A stretch of DNA of 64,000 nucleotides from an uncultured bacterium (GTDB lineage: Bacteria; Hydrothermota; UBA3073; NMUJ01; CBEVQO01). The translations under genes and the position numbers were made by a program. Shown here in pieces: positions 2,385 through 52,428 of the stretch (its first letter is position 1; every line of letters starts with the position of its first letter). The notes beneath the pieces were generated by a model. That model ran no database searches. It saw only the letters and a list, made by a program, of their open reading frames with translations, and was not told the origin of the DNA. The stretch is taken from assembly GCA_965552055.1 (NCBI GenBank), contig CBEVQO010000005.1:13373-77372 (forward strand), in the 5' to 3' direction.

Positions 2385-2411
2385 AACTTAATCAATATAC
2401 AGGTATGTCAA
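2385..2411 (-). promoter_or_regulatory. sigma70-like promoter (TTGACA-N15-TAAGTT) for the RnfC/GIY-YIG/ATPase genes
   Basis: Minus-strand TTGACA at 2411-2406 and TAAGTT at 2390-2385. Same ~45-nt block as the promoter upstream of the response-regulator gene at 11189-11215. Confidence 0.45.
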
Positions 2412-2413
2412 CA

Positions 2414-2521
2414 ATTTTTAGCCCCGCCTCCCTATCCCCACCGCCCTCGTGCACACCCCTCCTTTCAGTCGGGGTGTTGACTCACAACCCGTATGTAATA
2501 AGCTCGGCTACGCCTCGCATT
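2414..2521 (-). repeat. Intergenic GC/G-tract-rich repeat, copy 1
   Basis: Plus-strand text atttttagccccgcctccctatccccaccgccctcgtgcacacccctcctttcagtcggggtgttgactcacaacccgtatgtaataagctcggctacgcctcgca. Shares blocks with copies at ~11218-11296, ~15680-15846 and (reverse complement) ~24161-24266. Contains inverted repeat ACACCCC/GGGGTGT (2453-2459 / 2471-2477). Confidence 0.5.
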
Positions 2522-10499: not shown

Positions 10500-11176
10500 T
10501 CTTCTATTTTGTAGCCTATTCCTCTTACGCTTTTTATAAATTTCTTGGCTTTGCCTAATTTTTCTCTTAAATTCTTAATATGGACATCTACTGTCCTATC
10601 CAGAACAACTTTATCAATTCCCCATAATTTATCCAGAATCTGGTCCCTTGTAAATACCCAGCCTTTTCTTTCTGCCAGTATTTTTAGAATCCTGAATTCC
10701 GTTGGAGTTAAGTCCACTTTTTTATTTTCAACAAAGACTTCATATTTATTGAGGTCTATTACGAGGATATCACCTATTTTAATCTTTTTGCAGGTATCAT
10801 GCGGTGCTTTCCTTCTTAAGACTGCTTTTACTCTGGCAACTAACTCCCTTGGTGAGAAGGGCTTTGTCACATAATCATCTGCTCCCAGTTCCAGACCCAA
10901 AACTTTATCTGCTTCGGTAGTGCGTGCGGTAAGCATAATGATAGGAATAGATTTAAATTCATCTTTTGATTTTAGATACTTACAAACCTCAAAGCCATCC
11001 ATATCAGGAAGCATGAGATCCAAAATTATAAGGTCAGGTATCTGTGAGGATAAAAATTCGAAGAAATCTTCAGCATTCTGAAAGCATTTAACTTTAAAAC
11101 CATGCTTAGTGAGATGTAAAGATACAAGCTCTAAAATATCAGGCTCATCATCTATCACAGCTATTAATTCATTCAT
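10496..11176 (-). CDS. OmpR/PhoB-family response regulator (PhoB-like)
   Basis: Receiver domain (DDEPDIL, LDLMLPDMDGFEV, conserved Lys in YVTKPF) plus winged-helix output (LTPTEFRILKILAERKGWVFTRDQI). First gene of the phosphate cluster. Confidence 0.85.
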   Translation of the reverse strand: MNELIAVIDDEPDILELVSLHLTKHGFKVKCFQNAEDFFEFLSSQIPDLIILDLMLPDMDGFEVCKYLKSKDEFKSIPIIMLTARTTEADKVLGLELGADDYVTKPFSPRELVARVKAVLRRKAPHDTCKKIKIGDILVIDLNKYEVFVENKKVDLTPTEFRILKILAERKGWVFTRDQILDKLWGIDKVVLDRTVDVHIKNLREKLGKAKKFIKSVRGIGYKIEE

Positions 11177-11188
11177 CGCATTTCTCTA

Positions 11189-11215
11189 AACTTATTCAAT
11201 ATACAGGTATGTCAA
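11189..11215 (-). promoter_or_regulatory. sigma70-like promoter (TTGACA-N15-TAAGTT) for the Pho cluster; near-leaderless
   Basis: Minus-strand TTGACA 11215-11210 and TAAGTT 11194-11189. The ATG at 11176 lies about 12 nt after the -10 with no SD. Block is near-identical to 2372-2416. Confidence 0.45.
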
Positions 11216-11217
11216 CA

Positions 11218-11296
11218 ATTTTTAGCCCACCTCCCTATCCCCACCTCCCTATCCCCACCCCACAACCCATTGGTAATTAGCTCGCTTACGCTCGCA
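11218..11296 (-). repeat. Intergenic GC/G-tract-rich repeat, copy 2 (internal 14-bp tandem duplication)
   Basis: atttttagcccacctccctatccccacctccctatccccaccccacaacccattggtaattagctcgcttacgctcgca. Tandem 14-mer acctccctatcccc at 11229-11242 and 11243-11256. Lacks the hairpin block seen in copies 1 and 4. Confidence 0.5.
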
Positions 11297-11303
11297 TTTT
11301 TAC

Positions 11304-11331
11304 TTGACATCCTTAAAGATAAAATTATAAT
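11304..11331 (+). promoter_or_regulatory. sigma70-like promoter (TTGACA-N16-TATAAT) for the restriction-modification operon
   Basis: TTGACA 11304-11309 and TATAAT 11326-11331. The ATG at 11340 lies about 8 nt after the -10, so the AGGAG directly abutting the ATG is probably not a functional SD and the mRNA is likely leaderless. Confidence 0.5.
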
Positions 11332-11339
11332 TAAAGGAG

Positions 11340-12041
11340 ATGAATCTAAAGGAAGTTCAAAATAGACTTCAAGAAATTAAAAATAAAGGATTTGTGCCAT
11401 CTTTAAGAAGAGGAACAACAGGAATTGGATACACCTTTGAGATACTTTTTGGAATAAAGGAAAACAATATCCCAATCCCAGACATCGGCGGAAGAGTTGA
11501 AATTAAAACAATAAGAAGAGATTCGCAATCTTTAATAACATTATTTACTTTTAATAGAGGCGTCTGGCATATAAAGCAAAAAGAACTAATCAAAAAATAT
11601 GGATATGTTGATAAAAAGGGTAGATATGCATTAAAAAATACGGTTTTTTATGGCAAATCCATTCCACAAGGAATATCATTAGAAGTAGATGAAGATAAAA
11701 ACACTATTCATTTAGTTGATACGAATACAAAGAAAGTCCTTGCAACATGGGATGTTTATGTCATTGTCGGTATATTTATGACAAAATTGAGCAAATTATT
11801 ACTCGTAATAGCTGATAGAAAGAAAGAGAAAGGTAAAGAATATTTTCACTACAATGAAGCTTACCTTTTGACAGATCCCAGTGCTCGAAATTTTATAAAA
11901 GCATTTAAAAATTCCCTAATAGGCATTGATATTAGAATGCATCTAAAAGAAAGCGGAGAAGTTAGAAATAGAGGAACTGCATTCCGTATAAAAGAAAAGG
12001 ATTTATTAGAACTTTATGAAAATCGCAAGAAACTTATTTAA
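11340..12041 (+). CDS. Putative type II restriction endonuclease, MutH/MvaI/BcnI-like PD-ExK fold
   Basis: 233 aa with a candidate PD...ExK active site (IPIPDIGGRVEIKT) in a MutH-like arrangement. Stop is 2 nt before the SPPY methyltransferase gene. Confidence 0.5.
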   Translation: MNLKEVQNRLQEIKNKGFVPSLRRGTTGIGYTFEILFGIKENNIPIPDIGGRVEIKTIRRDSQSLITLFTFNRGVWHIKQKELIKKYGYVDKKGRYALKNTVFYGKSIPQGISLEVDEDKNTIHLVDTNTKKVLATWDVYVIVGIFMTKLSKLLLVIADRKKEKGKEYFHYNEAYLLTDPSARNFIKAFKNSLIGIDIRMHLKESGEVRNRGTAFRIKEKDLLELYENRKKLI

Positions 12042-13318: not shown

Positions 13319-15679
13319 TCACTCATGCTCCTCAAAGCCTTTGAGTAATTCTGCCATTTCTCTCAGTTTCTGGTCAACGAGGTAATTTACGGTATCAGGT
13401 TCATAAGTGCCATCGGGCAAAAGTTTTCCCGCTTTTACACCCGTTAGCAATTCAATGCCTTCATCAATGGTTTTTATCGCATAAATATGAAATTTGCCAT
13501 CTTCAACTGCTTTAACAACTTCTTTATTCAACATTAGATTTTTGATATTCTGATAGGGTATAATCACTCCCTGTGTGCCAGTAAGCCCTTTTGCCTTGCA
13601 TACTCTGAAAAAGCCCTCGATTTTTTCGTTAACACCTCCTATTGGCTGTATCTCACCCCATTGATTCACAGAACCTGTAACAGCGAGGTCCTGACGGATA
13701 GGCAGTCCAGATAGGCACGATAAAAGTGCGTAAAGCTCCGTGCTCGAAGCACTATCACCTTCTATTTCTTCATACATCTGCTCAAAGCATATACTCGCAG
13801 AAAGAGAAAGCGGTTTATTATGTGCATATTTGCCAGCAAGATAAGCACTCAAAATCAAAACTCCTTTGCTGTGAATAGGACCACTCATTTCAATTTCACG
13901 CTCAATGTTTAAAATGCCCTTCTTACCCATATAAACCCTGGCAGTAACACGAACAGGATAGCCAAAAGAATAATCACCGAGCTCAACAACAGTCAAACCA
14001 TTCACCTGACCTACTTTTTTGCCTTCAACATCTATAAGTAATCTGCCTCTTTTTATTTCTTCGTGTATTTTTTCTTCTATCAAATTTACCCTGTAGCGCT
14101 TTTTCTCAAGTGCCTTTTCAACATGCTCTGCCGTCACATATTTACTGCCATCCTGTTCTGCCCAGAAACTCGCTTCAGTTATCACATCAACAACTTCTAT
14201 AAATTTTGTGGATAATTTATCCTGGTCTCCCGTTAACTCCGAGCCATATTCAAGTATGCGTGCTACACCAGATGGGTCAAAATGCTTCAAATTTTTATCC
14301 CTGCATTGTTTCGCAATAAACGAAATATAAGCATCAATATGCTCCTTTGTTCTCGGCATCTCTGTATCAAAATCCGCTTTCACTTTAAACAATTTTCTGA
14401 AATCTTCATCAAATTCATGTAAAAGATGATAAAGCAAAGGTGTACCAATCAAAATAACTTTAACATTATGAGGGATGGGTTCTGGACGCAATGTAACAAC
14501 AGGTGTCTGACGCAATTCCTCACCTATATTCTCAATCCTCAACTCCTTTGTCCTTATCGCACGCTTTAAGGCATCCCATACAAATGGATTTAAAAGGGCT
14601 TCTTTCGCCGGTATTATCAAAAAGCCACCATTAGCCCTGTGAAAAGCTCCGGGTTTTATCAAAGTAAAATGAGTTACGAGATTGCCATCAACACTTTTAT
14701 ACTCAATTCTCCCAAAAAGATTATAATATGTCGGATTTGGTTCAAAAACAAGGGGTGCATGAGATAAATGTGAATTATCAACAAAAACATTAACTTTTAA
14801 GTTAAAAAGAAAATCAGGCTCCTCTTCTCCTGAAAGTGATTTTATCTTTTCAGTAAATTGTGCAAGGTATTCTTTGACACCATCAAAATATTCTTTCAAT
14901 TTCTTATATTTCTGATATTTCGCTTTAAGTTGTTTCACATATCTTCCGACCACATTTTTTACAATCCATTCATCGAGCTGTTTTATTTCTTCTCTCATTA
15001 CATCGTCAATTTCATGTAGCTTATGGAAGGTTTCGTCGAGTTTTTCCTTTATATATGCTCCTGCTTTTTCAATTTTTTCTTTTTCCTTTTTCGGAAGGGC
15101 TTCGAGTTCTTCAAGTGTATATTGTGTGCCATCTTCTTTCAGTGGCACTGCAAAAAGACCTGCAGGACGCCTTAAAACTTCAAAATTATATTTGCGGGCT
15201 TCTTTTTGTAATGATTCTAAAATTTCGGATTTCTTAGCTTCATATTTCTCTTTTATCGTATTGACTTCACGAAAATACTCATCGGATTTGAAAAAATGAG
15301 GCAATTTCTTTTTGCATGCGATTATTAATTTCTCCATATCTTCTGCAAGTTCTTTCCCTTTGCCTTTATCAAGTTCAACAAAAATAGGTTCTTCTGGCTT
15401 TTTAAAATTAAAAAGATAACAATAATCCTTTGGCGGTGGTAATTTTTTTGCGTATTCTTCTACAAATGCACGAACAGTGGAAGTCCTGCCGGTGCCAGGC
15501 AATCCCGATACAAATATGTTAAAGCCATCGGCTTTGGTCTGCAGACCAAATTTTATAGCTTCTACTGCACGCTCCTGACCAATGGTGCCGGTAAGTGGTT
15601 TGACTTCTTCAGTACTCTTAAATTTAAATTGCGAAATATCATATTTTAATCTAAGTTTATCAGCACTTAATTTTTCCAT
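13319..15679 (-). CDS. Lon-like protease (LonB/LonC-type) with degenerate P-loop
   Basis: P-loop-like GLPGTGRTS (Arg in place of the Walker A Lys) and no clear hhhhDE Walker B. C-terminal Lon protease domain with EGDSASST (Ser) and FFRVCKAKG (Lys). ORF track starts at TTG 15751, but the first 24 codons are the intergenic repeat; the likely start is ATG 15677-15679 (MEKLSADK...). Confidence 0.7.
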   Translation of the reverse strand: MEKLSADKLRLKYDISQFKFKSTEEVKPLTGTIGQERAVEAIKFGLQTKADGFNIFVSGLPGTGRTSTVRAFVEEYAKKLPPPKDYCYLFNFKKPEEPIFVELDKGKGKELAEDMEKLIIACKKKLPHFFKSDEYFREVNTIKEKYEAKKSEILESLQKEARKYNFEVLRRPAGLFAVPLKEDGTQYTLEELEALPKKEKEKIEKAGAYIKEKLDETFHKLHEIDDVMREEIKQLDEWIVKNVVGRYVKQLKAKYQKYKKLKEYFDGVKEYLAQFTEKIKSLSGEEEPDFLFNLKVNVFVDNSHLSHAPLVFEPNPTYYNLFGRIEYKSVDGNLVTHFTLIKPGAFHRANGGFLIIPAKEALLNPFVWDALKRAIRTKELRIENIGEELRQTPVVTLRPEPIPHNVKVILIGTPLLYHLLHEFDEDFRKLFKVKADFDTEMPRTKEHIDAYISFIAKQCRDKNLKHFDPSGVARILEYGSELTGDQDKLSTKFIEVVDVITEASFWAEQDGSKYVTAEHVEKALEKKRYRVNLIEEKIHEEIKRGRLLIDVEGKKVGQVNGLTVVELGDYSFGYPVRVTARVYMGKKGILNIEREIEMSGPIHSKGVLILSAYLAGKYAHNKPLSLSASICFEQMYEEIEGDSASSTELYALLSCLSGLPIRQDLAVTGSVNQWGEIQPIGGVNEKIEGFFRVCKAKGLTGTQGVIIPYQNIKNLMLNKEVVKAVEDGKFHIYAIKTIDEGIELLTGVKAGKLLPDGTYEPDTVNYLVDQKLREMAELLKGFEEHE

Positions 15680-15846
15680 TTTTAGCCCCGCCTCCGCTGT
15701 CCCCACCTTCCCGATTAAGTCAGCCCACTCCTTACCCTTCTTTAAACGCAATCAGAAGATAAAGCGTAAACAACCCGAATAACCCACATCCCCGTAATGG
15801 GCTGACATATCAACCCTTATGTAATGTGCTCGGCTGCGCCGAGCAA
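15680..15846 (-). repeat. Intergenic GC/G-tract-rich repeat, copy 3 (divergent middle, perfect 7-bp palindrome)
   Basis: tttttagccccgcctccgctgtccccacc ... caacccttatgtaatgtgctcggctgcgccgagca. Shares 5' and 3' blocks with copies 1, 2 and 4; the middle carries inverted repeat GTCAGCCCA/TGGGCTGAC. Abuts the Lon-like start codon directly (GGGGCTAAAAATG). Confidence 0.45.
15828..15844 (-). terminator. Hairpin GCTCGGC-tgc-GCCGAGC just downstream of the membrane-protein gene stop
   Basis: Perfect 7-bp stem, 3-nt loop, 4 nt after the stop at 15849. Only a weak U-rich tail follows, so terminator function is uncertain; it is also the conserved 3' block of the repeat. Confidence 0.3.
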
Positions 15847-15848
15847 TA

Positions 15849-17042
15849 TTACTCTTTCTTCTCTTCCTCTTTCTTCTCCTCTTTCTTTTCTTCTTCCTTC
15901 TTTTCCTCTTCCTCTATCGGCAATTCTTCTTCGGGCTTCTCTTCAAGCAGGTCTTTTTCATCTTTAATCTTAACAAGGACAACATAAAAGAGAGTTTGAC
16001 CGGCACTCCATGTTGCTAAACCATATCCCGCTACAAACATGCCAATGAAGTGGAAGGATAAACCAGCGAGAAAGCCACCAATCCAGTCAGCCCAGGTAAG
16101 AGGCTTCATCCACTCAACGCCCCACAGCAATACAGGAAGATGGAACACTTTTGCACAAAGTATCTCAGCCCATGGTACTCTCGGACAGCGCGGCAGATAC
16201 CACAAACCATTATTCCACATCACTTCCCACCATCTATAAGCACCGAGCTCCGTATATCTCGTGCCAGACCATAAGTTGAGTGCCCAGTGCATCAAAATGA
16301 GTGCCTTCTTAACCAGCCAGCCAAGAATATACACACCTGCAAACGCTGCAAATGCTATGAAAATCTGCCACAGAACTGTACGCCATGTCTGGTCATTCAA
16401 CACACTGAATACCTCAAAAAGAGTATCAAATGCATCGCTCTCCGTAGTAGCAGTAACAGCAGGAGATACTATAAGCGATAAAAACCATACTATCGCAAGG
16501 TAAACAACAAATAGCGCTCCAAATGCTATCGGGATAAAGAGCAAACCCGTTATTATCTGTCCAGCATAGGGAATCCTTCCAACGAGTCCACAGAGAAAAC
16601 CAACAAGAATCAGGAAGCCAATGAGAAATGTAAGCACAAGAGGAGCACCTATCGTGCCTTTCCACTGCTTCATCGCAAATCTTATAGCCTCTGTTACTTC
16701 GTAAAATTCATTGCCCTTTAACTGCTCAAAGGTCATCTTGCTGATAGCACAAACCGTAGTAAGCAGTATGAATACTCCAGCCGATACCCCTATAACCCAT
16801 ATCACCCAGCTCCATGGTCGAAGATGAGTGCCAACTCCCTTTACAGGTATTATCACCCACGGAATATACCTGAACTCACGCCAGACCTCTTTCCATGTCC
16901 AGCCCGAGGTAACATACGCTACATAGGCCAGTATAGAGTACACAACCGTCGCACTCAGTATCCCCAGGAACGCGATCCAGATTTTTTTAGCAGAGAACCC
17001 AAGACGAGGCGCCCTGACTACATCTGCAAAACCCCACTTCAT
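15849..17042 (-). CDS. Trp-rich polytopic membrane protein with acidic/basic (EEKK)n C-terminal tail
   Basis: Multiple hydrophobic helices; 26 Trp in 397 aa; tail ...EEKKEEEKKEEKKEEEKKE. Begins 12 nt after the trpS stop, so probably co-transcribed. Confidence 0.5.
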   Translation of the reverse strand: MKWGFADVVRAPRLGFSAKKIWIAFLGILSATVVYSILAYVAYVTSGWTWKEVWREFRYIPWVIIPVKGVGTHLRPWSWVIWVIGVSAGVFILLTTVCAISKMTFEQLKGNEFYEVTEAIRFAMKQWKGTIGAPLVLTFLIGFLILVGFLCGLVGRIPYAGQIITGLLFIPIAFGALFVVYLAIVWFLSLIVSPAVTATTESDAFDTLFEVFSVLNDQTWRTVLWQIFIAFAAFAGVYILGWLVKKALILMHWALNLWSGTRYTELGAYRWWEVMWNNGLWYLPRCPRVPWAEILCAKVFHLPVLLWGVEWMKPLTWADWIGGFLAGLSFHFIGMFVAGYGLATWSAGQTLFYVVLVKIKDEKDLLEEKPEEELPIEEEEKKEEEKKEEKKEEEKKE

Positions 17043-17054
17043 AATACCTCCTTT

Positions 17055-18029
17055 TTACCACATTCCTATTGCTTCCTTAACTTCCTTTAAAACCTCAGAT
17101 GCAACACTCCTTGCACGCTTCGAACCTTCAAAAATTATATCCTTAACATCTTCATCTTTTAAACTTTTAGCCCTCTCTCTAATCTCTCTGAAAAACTCCG
17201 ATAACTTTTGGGATGCCTCTTCCTTACACGCTACACAACCTCTTTTACCCTCCCTGCATTCCTTCTCAATGATACTTAAATTCTCTGCATTAACAAGGTT
17301 GTGATAGGCGAAAACAACACAACCTTCGGGATGACCAGGGTCATTTTTTCTTATCTTCTGAGGGTCTGTAAAAGCCTGCATAACTTTTTCTTTTATAACT
17401 TCAGGCTCATCTCTCACCAGTATATAATTTTTCAGCGATTTTGACATCTTTTTACCGTCAATCCCCGGTACTTTCGGTGACCTCGATAGAAGTGGCTGTG
17501 GCTCAGGGAATATCTTTTTATAAAGCGAGTTAAACCAGCGAGCAATTTGACGGGTTAATTCAAGATGAGCAAGCTGGTCTTCACCCACAGGTACTTTATT
17601 CGGCTTATACATCAAAATATCAACCGCCTGTAAAACAGGATACCCCAGTAACCCATAATTAACTTTTTCCCTCAAACCATAATCCCTTATCATCTCTTTG
17701 AGTGTTGGATTTCTTTCGAGCCAAGGCACAGGTACAAACATCGAAAAAATTAAATGCAATTCACAATGCTCGGGAACAAGCGATTGCAAAAAAATTACAG
17801 ATTTTTCAGGAGATATACCGGCAGAAAGCCAGTCCTTAGTCATTTCAATTATATTTTCCTTCAATTTAGATGTATCTTTATAATCTGTTGTCAATGCATG
17901 ATAATCTGCCAGCAAAAAATAACATTTATATTCATCCTGAAGTTTCAGCCAGTTACTTAAAGCACCAAAATAATTACCAATGTGAAGCTTGCCTGTTGTA
18001 CGCATACCAGATAAAATATTCTCTTTCAT
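17055..18029 (-). CDS. trpS: Tryptophan--tRNA ligase
   Basis: Class I signature HIGN (GKLHIGNYFG) and KMSKS (KKMSKSLKN); length 324 aa. Confidence 0.9.
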   Translation of the reverse strand: MKENILSGMRTTGKLHIGNYFGALSNWLKLQDEYKCYFLLADYHALTTDYKDTSKLKENIIEMTKDWLSAGISPEKSVIFLQSLVPEHCELHLIFSMFVPVPWLERNPTLKEMIRDYGLREKVNYGLLGYPVLQAVDILMYKPNKVPVGEDQLAHLELTRQIARWFNSLYKKIFPEPQPLLSRSPKVPGIDGKKMSKSLKNYILVRDEPEVIKEKVMQAFTDPQKIRKNDPGHPEGCVVFAYHNLVNAENLSIIEKECREGKRGCVACKEEASQKLSEFFREIRERAKSLKDEDVKDIIFEGSKRARSVASEVLKEVKEAIGMW

Positions 18030-18264
18030 TTCAATAAGATTTCGAGTTTTTTAGCAAGATATAAGAGCATTAAAAACAAAGCAAGCAGAATTATCAATAA
18101 TTTGTAGTTGGGCGAAGGACTTTTTCTTTCTGAAAATAATCTTCTCATTATCATACTATAAATTATCGTCAAATTACAAGGATGTCAAGAATAAAATGAA
18201 AAATTTGAATTGACATTTTTGTGAAATAAACATAATGGTTAGTGCGTTATATTAAAAAGGGGGT

Positions 18265-19107
18265 GTGATGAGGTATGTATTGTTAGGAGTGATATGTTTG
18301 GGACTGGTGGTAGGATGTGCTCGTAAGTGGATTTCGGATGAAGAAGCGATAAGGGAACTCATAGATGAGCTCGGCTATCTGCTGGGTGCGGGCGAATATT
18401 ACGGTAAGGAAACAGGGGATACCACTGTTACTCAAGGTAAGGGATATGCCGGGGTGTTCTGGTACAGAAGTGTCGATAGTGTGAGCGTAGATCTTAAAGT
18501 GAATATAAATGGCGATTCCGCATGGGTTGAAATAGAAAGAATGATTTACGGAGTATTCCACAGGTTTCCTTTCGATACGATGCCAGCAGGTACTCTGGTT
18601 GATAAGCCAAAAGACCTAAAAGATAAAATCACAAGATATGCTATTTTCAGGAAGACAGGTAAGCCGAGGCGTCATCGTGGATGGTGTTTGCATAAATTGT
18701 CGGGAGCTATGGCAAAATCACAACTTGGAGGTCCCGATATAAAGATTGATAGTGTGAAGTTGATATTGAAAGGCGATACGATAACGATAAGAGAGCCCTT
18801 TGAGTTTACAGATACTGTGAATATTATTGAATGCCAGCAAAATGAAGAAATTGAAGTTTATGCCTATGTATCTCCCGATACTGTTCCTGTTCTTGTATTT
18901 TTACATTTTCCAGGTAATCAGCGCCACATAAGGAGGAGATGCATGATAATAAGTGATGGGGTATTTTATGGTGAGTGCAAGGTAGGCAGGAAGGGTTATG
19001 GAAGATTGGGAGTAGATGTGATATGGAGTCCAACATTGTTTGAAGATGATGAGAGTACTTATCCTTACTGTTCGAGGGCATGGATTATAAATATAAGGTG
19101 CAAGTGA
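18265..19107 (+). CDS. Hypothetical lipoprotein
   Basis: Signal peptide with lipobox LVVGC (MMRYVLLGVICLGLVVGCAR); no recognisable catalytic motif. Confidence 0.5.
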   Translation: MMRYVLLGVICLGLVVGCARKWISDEEAIRELIDELGYLLGAGEYYGKETGDTTVTQGKGYAGVFWYRSVDSVSVDLKVNINGDSAWVEIERMIYGVFHRFPFDTMPAGTLVDKPKDLKDKITRYAIFRKTGKPRRHRGWCLHKLSGAMAKSQLGGPDIKIDSVKLILKGDTITIREPFEFTDTVNIIECQQNEEIEVYAYVSPDTVPVLVFLHFPGNQRHIRRRCMIISDGVFYGECKVGRKGYGRLGVDVIWSPTLFEDDESTYPYCSRAWIINIRCK

Positions 19108-19140
19108 GGAATAAAATTTTGAGATTTTTAAAATTTTAGC

Positions 19141-19169
19141 TTGACAAATTGATATTTTGAATATTATAT
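19141..19169 (+). promoter_or_regulatory. rRNA operon promoter P1
   Basis: agcTTGACAaattgatattttgaatattatat: -35 TTGACA at 19141-19146 with a TAtnaT-like -10 15-17 nt downstream. Confidence 0.5.
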
Positions 19170-19207
19170 AAGTGGGTTCTTTGGATTGAAAAAGTGAAAA
19201 AAGAAGC

Positions 19208-19237
19208 TTGACAAATTGGGATTTTTGATAATATAAT
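19208..19237 (+). promoter_or_regulatory. rRNA operon promoter P2 (tandem duplicate of P1)
   Basis: agcTTGACAaattgggatttttgataatataat: TTGACA 19208-19213, TATAAT-like 19231-19237. The ~67-bp unit agcttgacaaattg...ttctttg is repeated from P1. Confidence 0.55.
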
Positions 19238-19261
19238 AAGAGAGTTCTTTGAAAATAAAGT

Positions 19262-20818
<1,557 letters not shown>

Positions 20819-20851
20819 TTTCTCTCCGGGCAGCACACTTTATTTTTTTAT

Positions 20852-20923
<72 letters not shown>

Positions 20924-20924
20924 T

Positions 20925-20996
20925 GGGGATGTAGCTCAGTGGGAGAGCGCCTGCTTTGCAAGCAGGAGGTCAGGGGTTCGAATCCCCTCATCTCCA
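20925..20996 (+). tRNA. tRNA-Ala (anticodon TGC)
   Basis: Acceptor GGGGAUG/CAUCUCC with G3:U70, anticodon loop UUUGCAA, T-loop GGTTCGAAT. Separated from tRNA-Ile by 1 nt. CCA not encoded. Confidence 0.9.
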
Positions 20997-21040
20997 TGGG
21001 AAGCGATTTAGTTCTTTGACAATCAAGGCAGATGAGCATC

Positions 21041-24047
<3,007 letters not shown>

Positions 24048-24087
24048 GATGCTCATCTGCCTACTTTGTAATTAACCTGTTTTTAAC

Positions 24088-24157
24088 GCCCCGACCGCCT
24101 TCTTAATATTGTCCCTTAGAGGACCTGTGTAAGAATAAGGGGTCGGGGCTTTTTTTT
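24088..24157 (+). terminator. Rho-independent terminator of the rRNA operon (long nested hairpin plus T8)
   Basis: gccccgacc (24088-24096) pairs with ggtcggggc (24141-24149), with inner complementary segments ttctta/taagaa and gtcc/ggac, followed by 8 T at 24150-24157. Confidence 0.6.
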
Positions 24158-24160
24158 ATT

Positions 24161-24266
24161 ACGAGCGATAGCGAGTTTATTACATAAGGGTCTTTTGTCA
24201 CACCCCGACCGAAGGGAGGGGTGTGCACATGGGAAGGTGGGGACTGGGAGGAGGGGCTAAAAATAA
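24161..24266 (+). repeat. Intergenic GC/G-tract-rich repeat, copy 4 (opposite genomic orientation)
   Basis: Reverse complement reads tttttagcccctcctcccagtccccaccttcccatgtgcacacccctcccttcggtcggggtgtgacaaaagacccttatgtaataaactcgctatcgctcgt, colinear with copy 1. Oriented toward the downstream plus-strand promoter. Confidence 0.5.
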
Positions 24267-24273
24267 TTTTTAC

Positions 24274-24300
24274 TTGACTTTGTGACTTTCCTGTTATAAT
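24274..24300 (+). promoter_or_regulatory. sigma70-like promoter (TTGACT-N15-TATAAT) for the downstream envelope gene cluster
   Basis: TTGACT 24274-24279, TATAAT 24295-24300. The first ORF start (GTG 24307) lies 7 nt after the -10. Confidence 0.45.
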
Positions 24301-43216: not shown

Positions 43217-46200
43217 ATGAGGTGGTTAATTTTTATGTTTTTAACTGCAAATCTGTGGGGGGCTGAATACTGGTGGAGGATTGAGGTCGTTGATTCTGGG
43301 GTTCAGCGTGGTCAATATACAAGTGTTGTTCTTGATGATAGTGGTAGACCCTGGATTTCTTATTATGATGCCAATAATGGGTGGTTGATGTGTGCGCACT
43401 GGACAGGGACTGCATGGGATATTGATACGGTTGATGATAGTGGCAATGTTGGTATGTATTCGAATATTGCTCTTGATAAAGCAGGTTATCCTCATATCGT
43501 TTACTTTGATGATGGGAATACAAGGTTAAAGCATGCGTGGTGGACTGGTGCTTTTTGGAAAACAGAGACCGTGAATGACCCTAACTCAAATGATTATGGA
43601 TACTGGTGCGATATTGCTATAGATTCTTTAAATCGCATCTGGGTATCGTACTATGATGCTGATAACAAAAGGCTTATGTGTGCACGCAAAGTAGGAGCTG
43701 TGTGGGATACTATTTATATCGTAGTTGAAGCATTTGGACCTCCGGTCGGGGAATACTCATCAATTTGTATTGATACATCTAATAATCCCCATATATCCTA
43801 TTATCATCAGATTAATGGGTTATCTCATGCATGGTGGGATGGTTCAAAATGGCAGGCTCAGCAGGTTGATTTTGCAGGCGGTTATTACACAAGCATAATT
43901 GCAAGCGAATGTGATACACTGCATATATCTTATTACAATCCTTCTTCGCGGGATTTAAAATATGCGAAAGGTTATTATTCTTCGGGTAGCTGGGGATGGA
44001 CGACGCAGGTAGTTGATACACAGGGAGATGTTGGCAAATGGACGAGCATAGCTGTCTGTGGAAATTCACCTCATATATCCTATTATGATGCTACAAATTT
44101 ATGTCTCAAATATGCACATTTTGAGAATGGTAGCTGGGAGATAGAAGTTGTTGATTCGCCGAAAGTCGGTGAATACACATCAATTGCACTTGATACAAAT
44201 GGCTTACCCTGTATATCCTATTATGACGGAGGTAGTGAATGGCTTAAATTTGCAAGATTGCTTATAAGACCAGAGGTTGATTCAACTTCACCTCTTCATA
44301 ATGAAGTTAATGTATCGCGTGCAACTCAGATAAATGTCTGGTTCTCAAAGGATATTGAATCTGCAACAATAAATAGTGCGAGTTTTAAAGTAATTGGTTC
44401 ACAATCGGGTGAAAGGAAGGGCACGATAACTTACGATTCTAATGAACGCAAAGCAACTTTTACATTGAATGCAGGTGAAACTTTCTATACCGGTGAGAAG
44501 GTGACAGTAATTTTAACAGATTCTATTAAGTCAGTGGATGGTGCACCACTTGTGCCTTATGTGTTTGAATTTACGATAAAGGCAGCCGAAGGGATTGCAG
44601 AGTTTAGTAATGAGGTAAGGTATAGTGTATTGGGTACGCCTGTTGATATAGAGGTTTGTGACCTTGACCTTGATGGTGACCCAGACATTGTTACGCTTTC
44701 ACAGGATACGATAATGATATGGCGTAATGATGTTGATAGTCTGGTACCTGTGGATACTATTCCCTCGCCTTCTTCACAGTACTGCATTGCGATATTAGAC
44801 CTTGATTTGGATGGTTTACCTGATATTGTGGTTGATTCAACTCCATCGAGTGCTCCTTATAGTATAAAGTTTTACAAAAATCAAGGTGGATTGAATTTCG
44901 CCTGGGGTTTTCGTTGTCAAACTGCTTATGGTGTAACAGATATGTTTGTGTCTGACTTTGATGGAGATGGCGACTTTGATATTGCTGCACTGGAATTAAC
45001 TCAGGTTGAGATTCTTTTAAATGAAGGATTTTTTAATTTTACATCGAGTGATACGATTGACCTTACATTTTCGCACAATAAATTATATGGTGCTGATTAT
45101 AATAATGATGGGTTGATTGACCTTGCTGTTACTGCCGCAGCGGGCACTCCCGGTTATGATGTTCTTGCAAATGAAGGTGAAGGCAAATTTAAGCACATTG
45201 GAACAATAACTTTAAGTCAGGGTGTTAAGGATATTATTGCATCTGATTTCGACAATGATTACAATGCGGATAATGCTTTGACGGGCGATGATACACTTAT
45301 TATTTCAGAAGGCAATGGTGATTTTAGTTTTGCACCGGAAGATGATTATGTTGCTACTGGTTCAAATTTTCTTACTTCCGGTGATTTTGATGCAGATGGT
45401 GATATAGACCTTGCGGTTAGTGGGAATGTTACAGGTGGTGATACTTTATTTATATTTTTGAATGATAATGCTAGTTTTGATTCTGTTCACAAATTTTCTG
45501 CAACTGCGATAGAAAGAATTGTGAGTGCAGATTTTAACCTTGATAGCACAATTGATATTGCATCTATTCATTCTGGTGGAATATTATCAATATTTTACAA
45601 TACGCCCGATACATTTCCACCTCCGCCTCCTGAAAGTTTAACTGCAAATGGTGGTTCTCCCTCTCCATGGGATTCCAGTGCTCGATTTGTAATTGACTGG
45701 ATAAATCCTAATGACCCATCGGGGATACTTTTTGCCAATTATAAGATAGGTTCGAGACCTGTGAGTGACTGGGATACAACAGGTCATATGTCTGCACCGT
45801 ATACTCATCCCAAAGATACGATTTACTGGAAAGGGGAAGGGATAGATACATTGTGGGTGTGGCTTGTTGATGGTAACCTTAACACCTCGAAAGATTCTGT
45901 TTCATTTGTGCTTTTAAGAAGGGATACAACACCTCCTCCTGAGCCACAAAAGATTTCTCCATCTGATGGAATATGGGTTGATAGTGCAAGGATAAAATTT
46001 ATGTGGCATTCTGTTGTTGATTCTCTATCAGGGACAATGAGTTATGGGATAGTGCTTGAATATGATGATGTAATAGGTCCTCCTTATATTAGAACAGCGG
46101 GCGATTTGAGTGGCACAACTTACTTTTATACATGTCCTGAGACTGCTGTTTACTGGAGAGTATTTGCAAAGGATTCGGCAACAAACAGGAGTCCGCAATC

Positions 46201-49200
46201 ATTCTGGTGTGTAAAAATAGACACAACTCCTCCAAATAAATTTTATGTTATTTCTCCCGATGGTGTATGGTTGAGGAAACCTCCTTATACATTTATCTGG
46301 CATAGTGCAAAAGACCACTGGTCAGGTGTTGAAAGTTATAAATTGAGAGTGTGGAGAGAAGGTTTTGCTGCTAGCAATTGGTCCGGTATAACTGATACCT
46401 CTTACATTGTGTTTGGTTTGCCTGGTTTTGCCGAAACTACATACTGGTGGTGTGTTATAGCGTATGATTCTGCTGGAAATTATGTGTATAGTGATACAGG
46501 GATTTTCTGGACAGATACTACAATTTTGCCGCCTTCTAATCTCACGATAAATGGTAAAAATCCGAACGACTGGACCAATGATAGTGTATTTACATTGAAC
46601 TGGACAAATCCTTCTGATTATTCCGGTATCGTTAGAGCATTATATAAGATTGGCAATAGACCTTCTTCTGATTATGATACAACTGGTTCTCTCACAGGAA
46701 TTCCTCCTGTAAGTATTATCTGGCGGGATGAAGGTGTAGAAACATTATGGCTGTGGCTCGAAGATAAGGCAGGTAATGTTGATTACACAAAAAATGCATT
46801 TGCAATAATAAGAAGGGATATAACTCCGCCTCAATCTTTTACTCAGATTTCACCTGTAAATAATTTCTGGCTAAATACCATTAATCCTCGCCTTATATGG
46901 CACAGCACTATGGATACTTTGTCGGGCTTGGCTTATTATACGATAAATGTTGATACAGTTCAAACATTTTCAACGAAAATAATTTGTGATACTGTTTCGG
47001 ATACCATTTACAATGCAAATCTATTTGAAGACGCGTTTTACTGGTATGTTGAGGCATGGGATTCTGCTGGTAATGTATGTTCTACTTTTGTGTGGAATTT
47101 CAAAATAGATACAACCCATCCTCCCAAACCTGTTTTAATATCTCCTCCTGATGGCTCATGGAACGGCAAATATGCTCATTTTGTATGGCATAAAGTTGAA
47201 GATTACTGGTCTGGTCTAGCTGCTTATCGCTTAAACATTGATACGAATGCTTTGATGCCAAATCCTCTGACATTTTCACTTACAGATACAGAGACAACAA
47301 TTGTGCTTACTCATGAAGGCAAAACTTATTACTGGATGGTGGAAGCTGAAGATTCGGCATTTAATATATCGCAAAGTTTGGTATGGACTTTCAAACTTGA
47401 CACAACAGTTCTTGCACCGATTAATTTAATTGCAAATGATAGTTCTCCGTCACCGTGGCAAAGGAGTTCTATGTTTGTTATTAACTGGCAAAATCCATCT
47501 GATTCCGCTGGAATAAAGTTTGCATTATACAAACTTGGCACAGGACCCAGTAATAACTGGGATACCACAGGTACGATGCATTTACCACCCGATACGATTT
47601 ACTGGCAGGGCGAGGGCAAAGAAACTTTATGGGTATGGCTTTGCGATAGTGCAGGCAATGTTAATTACCATAATCGCTCTTTTGTGTTGTTAAGAAGAGA
47701 TACAACTCCTCCTTTTGCATTTTCAAAAATAAGACCCCAGGATAATGCGTGGATAAGGGTTGTTAAGCCTTCTCTTATCTGGCATAGCACTCAAGATTCT
47801 CTATCGGGTCTGAGGATTTATCGTGTTGCTGTAGATAAAGATATGACTCCTCCTTTTATGATTGATTTTGTTTTGCGAGGTACTCTATATGTTACACCCC
47901 ATTTACCTGAGACGATACTTTACTGGGCAGTCGTAGCAGTTGATTCTGCAGGTAACTTTAAAGAAGCTGATGCGGATACAAAAGTATGGTGGAAGATGAA
48001 AATAGATACAACTCCTCCTGATACAGTCCATCCAGTTTATCCTGTATCTAATCAATGGACGAGAGGTGGATTTATGTGGCGTAGTGCTAAAGATTACTGG
48101 TCAGGGATTAGATTTTATCATTTTGTGATAGATACAGTTTATCCATTCACTCCCAGTCCCATAAAGGATACAGTTTGCAGGGATACCGTGATATTTATCA
48201 AAGGACTTTCTGAGCGGAATTATTACTGGAAAGTTGTAGCATTAGATTCTGCTTTTAATGGAGGTGCTGGTGTTGTTCATCAATGTCGAGTTGATACCAC
48301 GCCACCGGATAGCGTTAAATTAATCTCTCCTGAGAACCTTTCTTACACGAATGATATACATTCTGTATTTACATGGGATACAGGCTATGATGCGCGTTCA
48401 GGTGTTATGGGCTATATTTTCTGGGATTCTTCACTTGCATATGGTGAAAAAATTGATACTCTTATCTTAGGCGTATTTAACACATCTTATAAGCCTTTAA
48501 AAGGTTTAAAGGAGGGCTGGCATTGCTGGGCAGTTGTAGCAATGGATTCAGCCTACAATGTTAGTGATGGTCATTATCCTTATTCTGTGCATTTGTTATG
48601 TGTGGATACTACTCCTCCTGAGTCCGCAATTGCAACTTCGCCTCTTTATGTTGATAGCCTTGTATTTGTTGTGCAATGGAGTAAAGGTAAAGATACTTTA
48701 TCGGGCATCACAGATACTTATAAATTGAGATATTCTACAGATTTAGTTTCATGGTATGATACGGCTGTTACGGGTACCGCATTTATTTTCAAAGGAGAAG
48801 ACCAGACAAAATATTACTTTGAGGTGCTTTCTCGGGATTATGCTGGCAATTTTGAGCGCATCACAGGAGTGCCTGAATGCTCAACCTATGTTGATACTAC
48901 ACCGCCTCAGCAGGTTCAGTTAATCTCACCTGAAGGCTGGATTAAAGAATTATCACCTGTTTTAATATGGCACAAAGCAAATGACTTTACAGGGATAGCA
49001 GAATATTATGTGCAGCTAAGTAAAGATATGGGTTTCGATACCATTATTTTTTCGGATACCGTTGCAGATACATTTGCGGTGGTAGGTTTAAATTTAATGG
49101 AAAATGTTAAGTACTACTGGCGAGTTAGGGCAAAAGACAACGCAGGCAATGTAAACATGTGGTCAGGTTATAATATGTTTAAAGTGGATACATCATCGCC

Positions 49201-51430: not shown

Positions 51431-52428
51431 TGTTGAAGCAATTAGAGTACTGGATAAGAAAGGTGATAAGAGAAACAAAAGACCTTGAATTTGACACTCA
51501 CCTGATCGGTGTAAGGACTAAAAAAGAGGATTATCCGAAAGCCATTTTTAATAGGACTTTAAGTGAAGCTGTAAAAAGGAAATATGGTTCAAGGTTTGAC
51601 CCCAAGAATCCCGATGTTCAGATAATATGCGATATTGATAAAGATGAGATAGAATTTTACATAAAGCCTGTCTTCCTTTATGGTAGATACAGAAAACTTG
51701 TGCGTGGTATTCCTCAAACTCGCTGGGATTGTAAGGAATGCGGAGGAAAAGGATGTGAAAAATGTAATTACACAGGCAAAATGTATCCTGAATCTGTAGA
51801 GGAGATAATAGGTGATAAGGTTAAAGAATATTTTAAAGCAGAAGAAATAATTTTGCATGGTTGTGGCAGAGAAGATGTAGATGCGAGGATGCTTGGAAAT
51901 GGCAGACCATTTGTGCTCGAAATAAGAAAACCATGGAAAAGAAGAGTTGATTTGAACAAACTTACAGAAGAAATAAATGATAGTGCAAAAGGGAAAATTG
52001 AAGTTTTATTTTTGCGTTATACTGAGAGGCATGCCGTTAGATTGATAAAAGCGGTTCGTCCAAAGAAAGTTTATCTTGTAAATGTGAAGTTCGAGGAGCG
52101 GGTTGACAAAAGTAAGCTTCTGATGGCACTGGATGAATTAAAAGGTAAGGAGATAGTGCAAAGGACACCGATAAGGGTTCTGCATCGCAGAGCCAATTTA
52201 AAAAGGATAAGAAAAGTTTATGATTGTAAATTGATAGAGTTTAACGATTCTACTGCAAAGATAGAGTTTACATGTGAAAGCGGTATGTATGTTAAAGAGA
52301 TGATTTCAGGTGACTTTGGCAGGACGAAGCCCAGTTTAAGCGAAATACTCGGCGTGCAATGTGAGGTGCAGGAGCTCGATGTAATAGGTGTTGAGAAGAT
52401 TCCGTTAGAAGAATTTGGGTTCCTCTAA
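51430..52428 (+). CDS. tRNA pseudouridine synthase Pus10-like (archaeal/eukaryotic type)
   Basis: Zinc ribbon CKECGGKGCEKCNYTG and block HGCGREDVDARMLGNGRPF resembling the Pus10 catalytic-Asp region. ORF track starts at 51400; the ATG at 51430 (MLKQLEYW) overlaps the giant gene stop as TAATG. Confidence 0.55.
   Translation: MLKQLEYWIRKVIRETKDLEFDTHLIGVRTKKEDYPKAIFNRTLSEAVKRKYGSRFDPKNPDVQIICDIDKDEIEFYIKPVFLYGRYRKLVRGIPQTRWDCKECGGKGCEKCNYTGKMYPESVEEIIGDKVKEYFKAEEIILHGCGREDVDARMLGNGRPFVLEIRKPWKRRVDLNKLTEEINDSAKGKIEVLFLRYTERHAVRLIKAVRPKKVYLVNVKFEERVDKSKLLMALDELKGKEIVQRTPIRVLHRRANLKRIRKVYDCKLIEFNDSTAKIEFTCESGMYVKEMISGDFGRTKPSLSEILGVQCEVQELDVIGVEKIPLEEFGFL

Follow-up and report, generated by a model that had tools for sequence, protein, structure and literature searches.

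A lineage-specific family of intergenic repeats with predicted DNA mini-hairpins in an uncultured bacterium of the Hydrothermota

Between phoU and an RnfC-like gene of an uncultured bacterium of the Hydrothermota lies a GC-rich intergenic element, one of four copies in the 64,000-nucleotide stretch analysed here (positions 13,373 to 77,372 of contig CBEVQO010000005.1, assembly GCA_965552055.1; hereafter the window). The question raised by this locus is whether the element belongs to the promoters beside which it stands, is transcribed into a structured RNA, serves replication as single-stranded DNA, or is a repeat that was dispersed between genes. The family is genuine, previously undescribed and of a known general kind, and its DNA mini-hairpin features are unusually clear. 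The explanation tentatively favoured here, held with somewhat less than even confidence, is a lineage-specific REP/BOX-like dispersed repeat that would act via hairpins of single-stranded DNA. It is preferred because of the mosaic build of the element, its decayed copies, the unrelated neighbouring genes, the mixed contexts, the restriction to one lineage and the formation of hairpins on one strand only.

The four copies of the window are designated W1 to W4, and loci on contigs outside the window are designated L with a number. A strict pattern for the first shared block, TTTAGCCCN{1,2}CCTCCN{3,4}TCCCCACC, matched four times in the window, at these four sites only, with 0.00 matches expected from 100 shuffles. 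Direct reading bore out the four copies at the places given by an earlier, sequence-only reading of this DNA, with the extents listed below, and reading together with alignment confirmed that the shared blocks which it described are real. The C-rich strand lies on the forward strand in W1, W2 and W3, and the G-rich strand in W4. A scan of metagenomes with the same pattern gave 49 stretches, among which 16 from JGI sample Ga0190367 and one from sample Ga0180302 also hold the second shared block. In all, the family comprises 17 distinct loci and one ortholog. The possibility, raised beforehand, that the similarity is confined to the window through local duplication is ruled out, as is chance, by the shuffles and by at least 13 further loci on metagenome contigs of the same lineage. 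In addition, the exact protein of the response regulator adjacent to W2 led to four contigs of near-identical strains, in which the same copies are present.

Outside this lineage the family was not recovered. Scanning one genome per species (185,579 species) with the strict pattern gave 15 single matches in unrelated, mostly GC-rich genomes, and none of the pattern matches in these genomes, in other metagenomes or in viral contigs passed either of two hidden Markov models (HMMs), one for the 5' module, delimited as TGCGAGCGTAAGCGAGC..ATTACATATGGGTTG, and one for the 3' module, delimited as ..GGAGGNGGGGCTAAAAA. The same HMMs regained all family loci together with two solo 5' modules, and detected nothing in 139 other fetched loci, viral contigs included. 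Plasmid and phage collections held no family match, and a literature search with the family consensus sequences and the sample accessions found nothing. The host lineage itself is isolated, because the closest LonC homolog outside it is only 55% identical. The G+C content of the window is 36% and that of its rRNA operon (19266-24049) about 61%, a difference that suggests a thermophilic host.

The four copies, their parts and their immediate surroundings are as follows.

2415..2519, reverse strand: W1, 105 nt, of the short-hairpin type, with the phoU stop (2540) on one side and the RnfC-like gene promoter on the other
2502..2518, reverse strand: W1 5' mini-hairpin GCGAGGC-GTA-GCCGAGC, with tandem G.A mismatches and a GNA triloop
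2453..2477, reverse strand: W1 central hairpin ACACCCC-GA-CT-GAA-AG-GA-GGGGTGT, the sole helix kept in the centroid fold
2415..2446, reverse strand: W1 G-rich 3' module, ending in GGGGCTAAAAA, with a canonical G-quadruplex motif at 2422-2446
2406..2411, reverse strand: TTGACA, the -35 box that serves the RnfC-like gene, separated from the end of W1 by 3 nt; it belongs to a host promoter and lies outside the family core
11219..11296, reverse strand: W2, minimal type without the central hairpin, 78 nt, between divergent promoters
11210..11215, reverse strand, and 11304..11309, forward strand: -35 boxes flanking W2
11229..11256, reverse strand: two tandem 14-nt units GGGGATAGGGAGGT in W2, present as one unit in three other assemblies
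11247..11268: canonical G-quadruplex motif in W2
15679..15845, reverse strand: W3, long type, 167 nt, filling the junction between a 397-aa open reading frame (ORF; stop 15849) and the LonC-like gene
15719..15806, reverse strand: W3 long central hairpin, 9-bp stem GTCAGCCCA/TGGGCTGAC with a variable interior
15828..15844, reverse strand: W3 mini-hairpin GCTCGGC-GCA-GCCGAGC, both G.A mismatches replaced by Watson-Crick pairs
24088..24149: long GC-rich hairpin, followed by a T run, the putative rRNA-operon terminator
24160..24263, forward strand: W4, short-hairpin type, 104 nt, between the rRNA-operon terminator and the promoter of an SLBB-domain gene
24161..24176, forward strand: W4 mini-hairpin ACGAGC-GATA-GCGAGT, outer pair A-T (G-C in most copies)
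24199..24225, forward strand: W4 central hairpin CACACCCC-GA-CC-GAA-GG-GA-GGGGTGTG
24231..24256: canonical G-quadruplex motif in W4
24274..24279 and 24295..24300: TTGACT and TATAAT of the SLBB-domain gene promoter

Read on the G-rich strand from 5' to 3', the element is built of six parts. An A/T run, frequently AAATTTTTAA, is followed by the mini-hairpin, (T)G/A-CGAG(G)C, then GNA or GNNA, then G(C)CGAG-C/T, which contains the tandem G.A mismatches, and by a conserved linker, ATTACATATGGGTTG. The central hairpin comes fourth and is optional, being missing in W2, L025 and L057. It measures about 30 nt and is of two sequence kinds in W1, W4, L038 and L023, and it reaches about 90 nt in eight complete copies and in L058, which is cut by the contig end; in this long form the 9-bp stem is invariant and the interior variable. 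The fifth part is a G-rich tail, GG(T/C)GGGGA..GGAGGNGGGGC, and the sixth is the TAAAAA(T) end, where the 3' module terminates in GGGGCTAAAAA. Both ends of the element read TAAAAAT outwards. The actual termini, 5' TGCGAGCG and 3' GGCGGGGC, are not complementary to each other, and only the flanking TTTTTA and TAAAAA runs mirror one another. As detected by the module HMMs, each locus carries one set of modules in the same orientation, with no inverted partner. TAA stands ahead of the core in seven of 16 copies, and in 11 of 16 the bases closing the 5' flank are TTTAA, TTTAT or TTAAT.

The mosaic extends to incomplete forms. A solo 5' module is located at L028:2621-2637 and a solo 3' module in L054, L057 is a truncated copy, and L059:347-374 is an internally deleted, decayed copy that retains the 5' module. 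Among the long-type copies the flanking modules are almost invariant and the interior is about 35% variable, indicating that something constrains the modules, be it a host function, a cognate protein or gene conversion. An extra GC-rich segment lies between the solo 5' module and the full element of L028 (2563-2640, numbered on the C-rich strand); it contains the short palindromes AAGGCACTGCCTT, CCACGCTGTGG and AGCGCT and is maybe a different repeat.

A total of 21 instances of the mini-hairpin were compared, namely 16 extracted elements, two strain variants (W3, W4), both solo 5' modules and an inner hairpin of L023. The form C[G/T][A/C]G(G)C-G N(N) A-G(C)CGAG is followed by 19 of them (15 of the extracted elements, both strain variants, the solo 5' module of L028 and the L023 inner hairpin), and the same number carries the mini-hairpin motif, a GC/GC stem closing a G-N(N)-A loop, in a fold predicted from sequence. 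Stem changes occur on both arms together: an additional G-C pair is gained on both sides at once (CGAGC..GCGAG versus CGAGGC..GCCGAG), and at the outermost position 12 copies have G-C and three have A-T. At the W3 locus the internal G.A/A.G mismatches have become T-A/A.G in a sister strain (GCTAGGC) and T-A/C-G in the strain of the window. The short central hairpin repeats the plan of the mini-hairpin, with a stem, tandem G.A, two further pairs (CT/AG, CC/GG or GC/GC) and a GAA loop. On the C-rich strand the G.A positions become C.T/T.C pyrimidine-pyrimidine mismatches. Judged from the compensatory changes in these alignments, the hairpins are under selection and are specific to the G-rich strand.

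The loops seen were GTAA, GAAA, GATA, GTTA, GTCA, GTA, GAA and GCA. The tandem sheared G.A pairs of CGAG/CGAG are a known DNA motif, and one paper reportedly deals with a CGAG-rich DNA region. Extraordinarily stable DNA mini-hairpins of the types d(GCGNNAGC) and d(GCGNAGC) have a Tm of 69.5-76.5 C (PMC13037366). All loops of the family obey this GCGNNAGC/GCGNAGC rule of DNA, and three of them, GATA, GTTA and GTCA, violate the GNRA rule of RNA. Since the loops fit the one rule and break the other, the relevant folded species is taken to be single-stranded DNA rather than RNA, for which the loops are evidence, not proof.

An RNA transcribed from the G-rich strand was considered as well. It might be a small RNA, or an element of 3' or 5' untranslated regions (UTRs) that stabilises or regulates the neighbouring mRNAs, and the long variant could encode a type I toxin-like hydrophobic peptide whose start codon would be hidden in the 9-bp stem. 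Hairpin covariation and the tolerance of G.U-type pairs on the G strand only are in favour of such an RNA, W3 is necessarily transcribed within its operon, and in five to six tandem contexts the element begins 0-26 nt past the upstream stop codon. Nearest-neighbour folding reproduces both hairpins. Against this, the folding z-scores for the G and C strands are unremarkable for W1 (+0.5/-0.1) and W2 (+0.6/-0.2), and for W4 (-2.0/-2.5) the C-rich strand folds at least equally well. RNAalifold on the eight long copies returned a covariation term of +0.16 and only two compensatory pairs out of 34, and the linker and G-rich tail, together over half of the element, are unpaired. A known RNA family is ruled out, as Rfam gave no match at the gathering score and only chance-level values (E = 1.7-7.6) in a permissive search (E <= 10). 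An intrinsic terminator is likewise ruled out, since neither hairpin is followed by a U run on either strand. At the six loci with a divergent 5'-side gene, no consensus promoter was found ahead of the element on the G strand, despite the strongly consensus-like character of the host promoters. Together with the three tetraloops that break GNRA, these observations leave a structured RNA distinctly improbable.

The peptide-coding side of the same proposal concerns the long central hairpin, in which a small hydrophobic ORF such as MSAHYGFWVVAGVVALSAVCVF or MWV..ALSSDCV may start with ATG at the foot of the 9-bp stem (window 15719-15806; L027, L028, L030, L058, L059, L060, L065 and L067). All eight long copies contain an ORF of 15-44 codons, and a frame reading ALS(A/S)(V/D)CV is retained in seven of the eight complete ones despite insertions and deletions, a point in its favour. 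Against it, the start and frame vary, no promoter is recognisable, codon positions 1 and 2 take most of the changes in the peptide (8:4:2, counted by eye), a Pfam search with the small peptides gave no match, and the ORF is missing from half of the copies. A separate candidate, an internal promoter on the C strand of the form (C/T)TGAC(A/T/C)-N13-14-TAATAA, was rejected by inspection, its spacing being wrong against the N15 of the host and its -10 unconserved.

How the element stands to genes is more intricate than the sequence-only reading had put it. Its statement that the element lies always upstream of a promoter and is oriented with the downstream gene is true of the window in so far as all four copies are 5' of a co-oriented gene, located on the GGGGCTAAAAA/TAAAAA side; it does not extend to the whole family. 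The distance to a TTGAC(A/T) box is 3 nt for W1, 3 nt for W2 and 10 nt for W4; W3 directly abuts the ATG of the LonC-like gene, the last A of the element being the A of the ATG. W3 occupies an operon junction that would measure 3 nt in its absence, and between W3 and the ATG there is no promoter. Reversed copies in tandem contexts were found at L038, after mutS, and at L057, so that among the informative tandem contexts five to six are co-oriented and two reversed, a difference that is not significant. The 5'-side gene is divergent at six loci (W2, L027, L028, L030, L060 and L065), and at all of these except L028 a -35-like box lies within 20 nt of each end; the 3'-side genes of L030 and L060 are beyond the contig end. 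The downstream genes are unrelated, coding for the RnfC-like protein, a PhoB-like regulator, LonC, an SLBB export protein, MnmG and ribosomal protein L28.

Within the family, TTGAC(A/T) was found no more than 20 nt from the TAAAAA end at 12 of 17 loci and from either end at 13 of 17, the commonest distance being 3-4 nt (six loci). Uniform insertion into the intergenic DNA of the window would give about 18-20% (p = 2e-6 for 12 of 17), a null that slightly understates the expected fraction, W3 not having been excised. The closeness to -35 boxes is above this null and nevertheless expected from the compaction of the genome. The five convergent gene pairs of the window overlap or lie no more than 6 nt apart, and the gaps that now hold an element would measure 67, 84 and 3 nt without it, the promoter-bearing ones 67-84 nt. 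In the element-free divergent gap at 18181-18216, two -35 boxes stand 20 nt apart. As convergent genes abut and gaps are tiny, non-destructive insertion is almost confined to a few bases upstream of a -35 box. The promoter association is thus partly supported, and compaction can mimic such a link.

Whether the promoter itself travels with the repeat was judged from sequence identity. Promoters adjacent to elements share a mutual identity of 0.57, compared with 0.56 against element-free promoters, rRNA P1 and P2 included, and 0.94 between W1 and W2. The adjacent promoters hence represent the generic consensus of the organism, and the promoter as a component of the repeat is ruled out except for the W1/W2 pair. 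These two copies have 71 nt in common at 94.4% (2372-2442 versus 11176-11250), 41 nt of which lie outside the element and run through the -35, the -10 and the 5' UTR; the same promoter accordingly precedes the RnfC-like and the regulator gene. Host promoters in general read cTTGACAaa-N-TTTTGAt-TAtAAT, with a hexamer spacing of 15 nt rather than 17 (cTTGACA-N15-TAtAAT), and the two tandem rRNA promoters at 19141-19175 and 19209-19240 follow the same form, as do the sites at 18181-18216.

On this evidence a module of DNA upstream of promoters, maintained by the host, has to be weighed. With a GC-rich core and an A5 tract at each outer end, reaching upstream from about -38, it might make an UP-like contact, offer a platform for protein binding, or serve through non-B DNA (mini-hairpin and G-quadruplex) as a supercoil sink or insulator under negative supercoiling, especially between divergent promoters, and at high temperature. 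The frequency of outward TTGAC(A/T), the TAAAAAT at both ends and the five copies between back-to-back -35 boxes agree with such a role. G-quadruplex motifs, defined by four tracts of G3+ with loops of 1-7 nt, agree in part: the only three canonical ones in the 64 kb, rRNA included, are those in W1, W2 and W4, and seven of the eight short or minimal copies carry one, but none of the eight long copies does, so that a G-quadruplex as a conserved feature of the family is ruled out. Further points oppose the module: there is no promoter on which W3 could act, L038 and L057 are turned towards the 3' end of a gene, about three quarters of the promoter-like sites of the window are free of the element (among them the divergent gap at 18181-18216 and the strong rRNA P1 and P2), the spacing between 5' module and promoter spans a range of 90 nt, and degenerate and internally deleted copies occur. 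With -35 closeness predicted by compaction alone, a promoter module is considered rather unlikely, though it stays in contention.

The dispersed repeat stays in front as the explanation of the contexts. It would be a non-autonomous element, dispersed over the chromosome and probably spread via a single-stranded DNA intermediate. Its recognisable features would be the hairpins of the G-rich strand, namely extraordinarily stable mini-hairpins of the GCGNAGC/GCGNNAGC type to which tandem sheared G.A pairs are added. Copies would survive only at harmless sites, either in the AT-rich bases upstream of a -35 box or right after a stop codon or terminator, and such survival in a compact genome would make the element look promoter-associated. 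The conserved 5' and 3' modules may be maintained by selection or by a cognate protein, the centre being dispensable, and a dedicated promoter function is probably absent. Of the four roles that had been suggested from the letters alone, the MITE-like dispersed repeat fits best and the small structured RNA is poorly supported.

The direction of replication bears on the same question. Gene strand, GC skew and third-position skew all flip near 18.5 kb, with a mean third-position GC skew of +0.23 for leading-strand genes and -0.06 for lagging-strand genes. W1 to W3 lie to the left of the flip and W4, inverted, to the right, so that in all four copies the G-rich strand is the leading-strand sequence and hence the lagging-strand template. 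This is expected from replication-coupled mobilisation of single strands. In the window, orientation relative to replication is fully confounded with the direction of genes and transcription, and a codon-skew likelihood test on short contigs, a weak and noisy one, gave the same result for 10 of 14. The switch of skew and strand at about 18030-19265 suggests a replication origin nearby; no cluster of DnaA boxes (TTATCCACA, up to one mismatch) was found in 14783-19959, and Pfam gave no match to the 280-aa ORF at 18265-19107.

By analogy with the phage G4 origin and ssiA of RSF1010, the element could also be a replication signal of the chromosome, a site for priming or restart on the lagging-strand template. 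Its mini-hairpins match the motif of primase-dependent single-strand initiation sites (PMC13037366), the strand predicted to fold is that template in four of four, with the orientation flipping at the skew minimum, and all four copies lie within 16 kb of this minimum, with none in the remaining 40 kb. The confounding with gene direction and the weakness of the contig test count against it, the core GCGN(N)AGC is frequent in the rest of the window (26 matches), and the G-rich tail would stay unexplained. No chromosomal signals of this single-strand priming kind are known to be needed in bacteria, and a replication signal is regarded as very unlikely. A broader alternative is a host-selected, strand-specific non-B DNA device of a thermophile, either a promoter insulator responsive to supercoiling or temperature or a single-strand initiation signal, which we consider unlikely. 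In such a device, ultra-stable mini-hairpins with tandem G.A, joined by a G-quadruplex in half of the copies, would extrude from the G-rich strand once the DNA upstream of active or divergent promoters, or the lagging-strand template, is underwound or single-stranded.

Several observations weigh against the dispersed repeat that is nevertheless preferred. In the ortholog pair L023/L055 the element differs at four of 103 positions, all of which also vary among paralogs, compared with 47 of 309 third codon positions of the neighbouring gene (Fisher p = 0.0016) and seven of 42 positions of the adjacent promoter (p = 0.014). This change, about four times slower than at synonymous sites, points to a selected function or gene conversion rather than inert junk, and it speaks for the promoter module, the adjacent promoter having changed faster as well. 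Among strains 0.6-1.4% apart the elements show seven events in 461 nt, near the overall rate, and every copy is present in every strain; no polymorphism of filled versus empty sites was seen in these strains or in a pair about 6% diverged, so that mobility is hypothetical. No transposase, RAYT or other mobilising gene was found among the scanned genes of the window and the short contigs. Terminal inverted repeats beyond a 7-nt A/T run and a clear target duplication were not detected, TAA being present in only seven of 16 copies. The excess of outward TTGAC within 20 nt over the uniform null, finally, may reflect a real link to promoters.

A number of further observations were made in and around the copies. 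W1 differs in L016 by a single G within a G tract. W1 and W2 bracket a cluster of the phoB/phoR-like regulator, pstSCAB and phoU. The MvaI/BcnI-type restriction endonuclease gene beside W2 is not called in one metagenome-assembled genome (L016:3702-4451 versus window 11340-12041), and the alignment with L016 is broken at about 11668-11875, so that the gene may be disrupted in that strain. The public call of the LonC-like gene (13319-15751, 810 aa) begins at a TTG within W3, 24 codons into the element; the ATG at 15679 (786 aa) is the more probable start codon. The element also breaks assemblies, for several metagenome contigs end within it. No 5S rRNA gene follows the 23S rRNA gene (24050-24160), a GC-rich terminator-like hairpin being there instead. 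Apart from the element, the window contains a 2737-aa ORF at 43217-51430 and, at 51400-52428, a clear Pus10-type pseudouridine synthase (Pus10_C, E = 3.5e-70), a family usually regarded as archaeal and eukaryotic.

One more lineage-specific dispersed intergenic repeat is not surprising by itself, such repeats being common. The interest lies in the mini-hairpin with tandem sheared G.A in every intact copy, in an AT-rich genome, presumably of a thermophile, where ordinary short hairpins would melt, and the family offers a natural test case of whether such mini-hairpins act as single-stranded DNA in cells. The change slower than at synonymous sites implies some constraint on the element. In a poorly sampled lineage, an element that misleads gene callers and breaks assemblies is also of practical concern.

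Among known systems, REP/BIME sequences (REPIN, mobilised by RAYT) are likewise short, GC-rich, extragenic, multi-copy and lineage-specific, with imperfect one-strand hairpins that keep conserved mismatches, a modular mosaic, long persistence and conservation. The present element differs in lacking a GTAG/GTGG head in all 16 aligned copies, its hairpins beginning instead with (T)G/A-CGAG, in having no inverted REP pairs, in not being concentrated at gene 3' ends and convergent gaps, and in its long G-rich tail, which is unpaired; the scan of window genes revealed no RAYT. Pneumococcal BOX (boxA-boxB(n)-boxC) shares the conserved end modules around a variable or optional middle and the intergenic location, often near promoters, without a transposase of its own, but there is no sequence kinship, the BOX modules are larger and fold as a whole, and the present element is strand-asymmetric in composition with mini-hairpins of DNA type. 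The promoter-bearing Correia elements of Neisseria and other MITEs with terminal inverted repeats, such as those derived from IS630 or IS5, differ in having such repeats and a TA or fixed target duplication, both lacking here. The PATEs of IS200/IS605 are alike in the absence of inverted termini, in one-strand hairpins and in an orientation consistent with the lagging-strand template, and unlike in that the hairpin here is at the extreme 5' tip and not sub-terminal, no fixed 4-5-nt target is apparent, the second hairpin, where there is one, stands at a distance of 45 nt from the 3' end, and no TnpA/TnpB was found.

A putative mobile promoter has been defined as more than 50 nt at 80% identity or above, in front of genes that are not homologous and whose own upstream neighbours are not homologous either (Matus-Garcia et al. 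2012, PMC3488235). W1 and W2, with their unrelated flanking genes, come under this operational definition, but it is in this pair only that the promoter travels with the repeat. The QUAD/Sib-Ibs and LDR type I toxin-antitoxin loci of E. coli are comparable to the long variant only, as intergenic repeats with a tiny hydrophobic ORF, and are unlike it in that here no promoter or antisense RNA is identifiable, half of the family is ORF-less, and frame and start vary. The stable DNA mini-hairpins (Hirao; review PMC13037366) provide the exact motif of every intact copy, with the loop variants among those measured as stable; they are a structural motif and not a family of elements, and their known natural settings are the single-strand origins of phages and plasmids and the promoters of phage N4, none of them a chromosomal repeat. 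On the features compared, the element is a member of none of the repeat families; it resembles REP/BIME, pneumococcal BOX and bcr1 in general kind.

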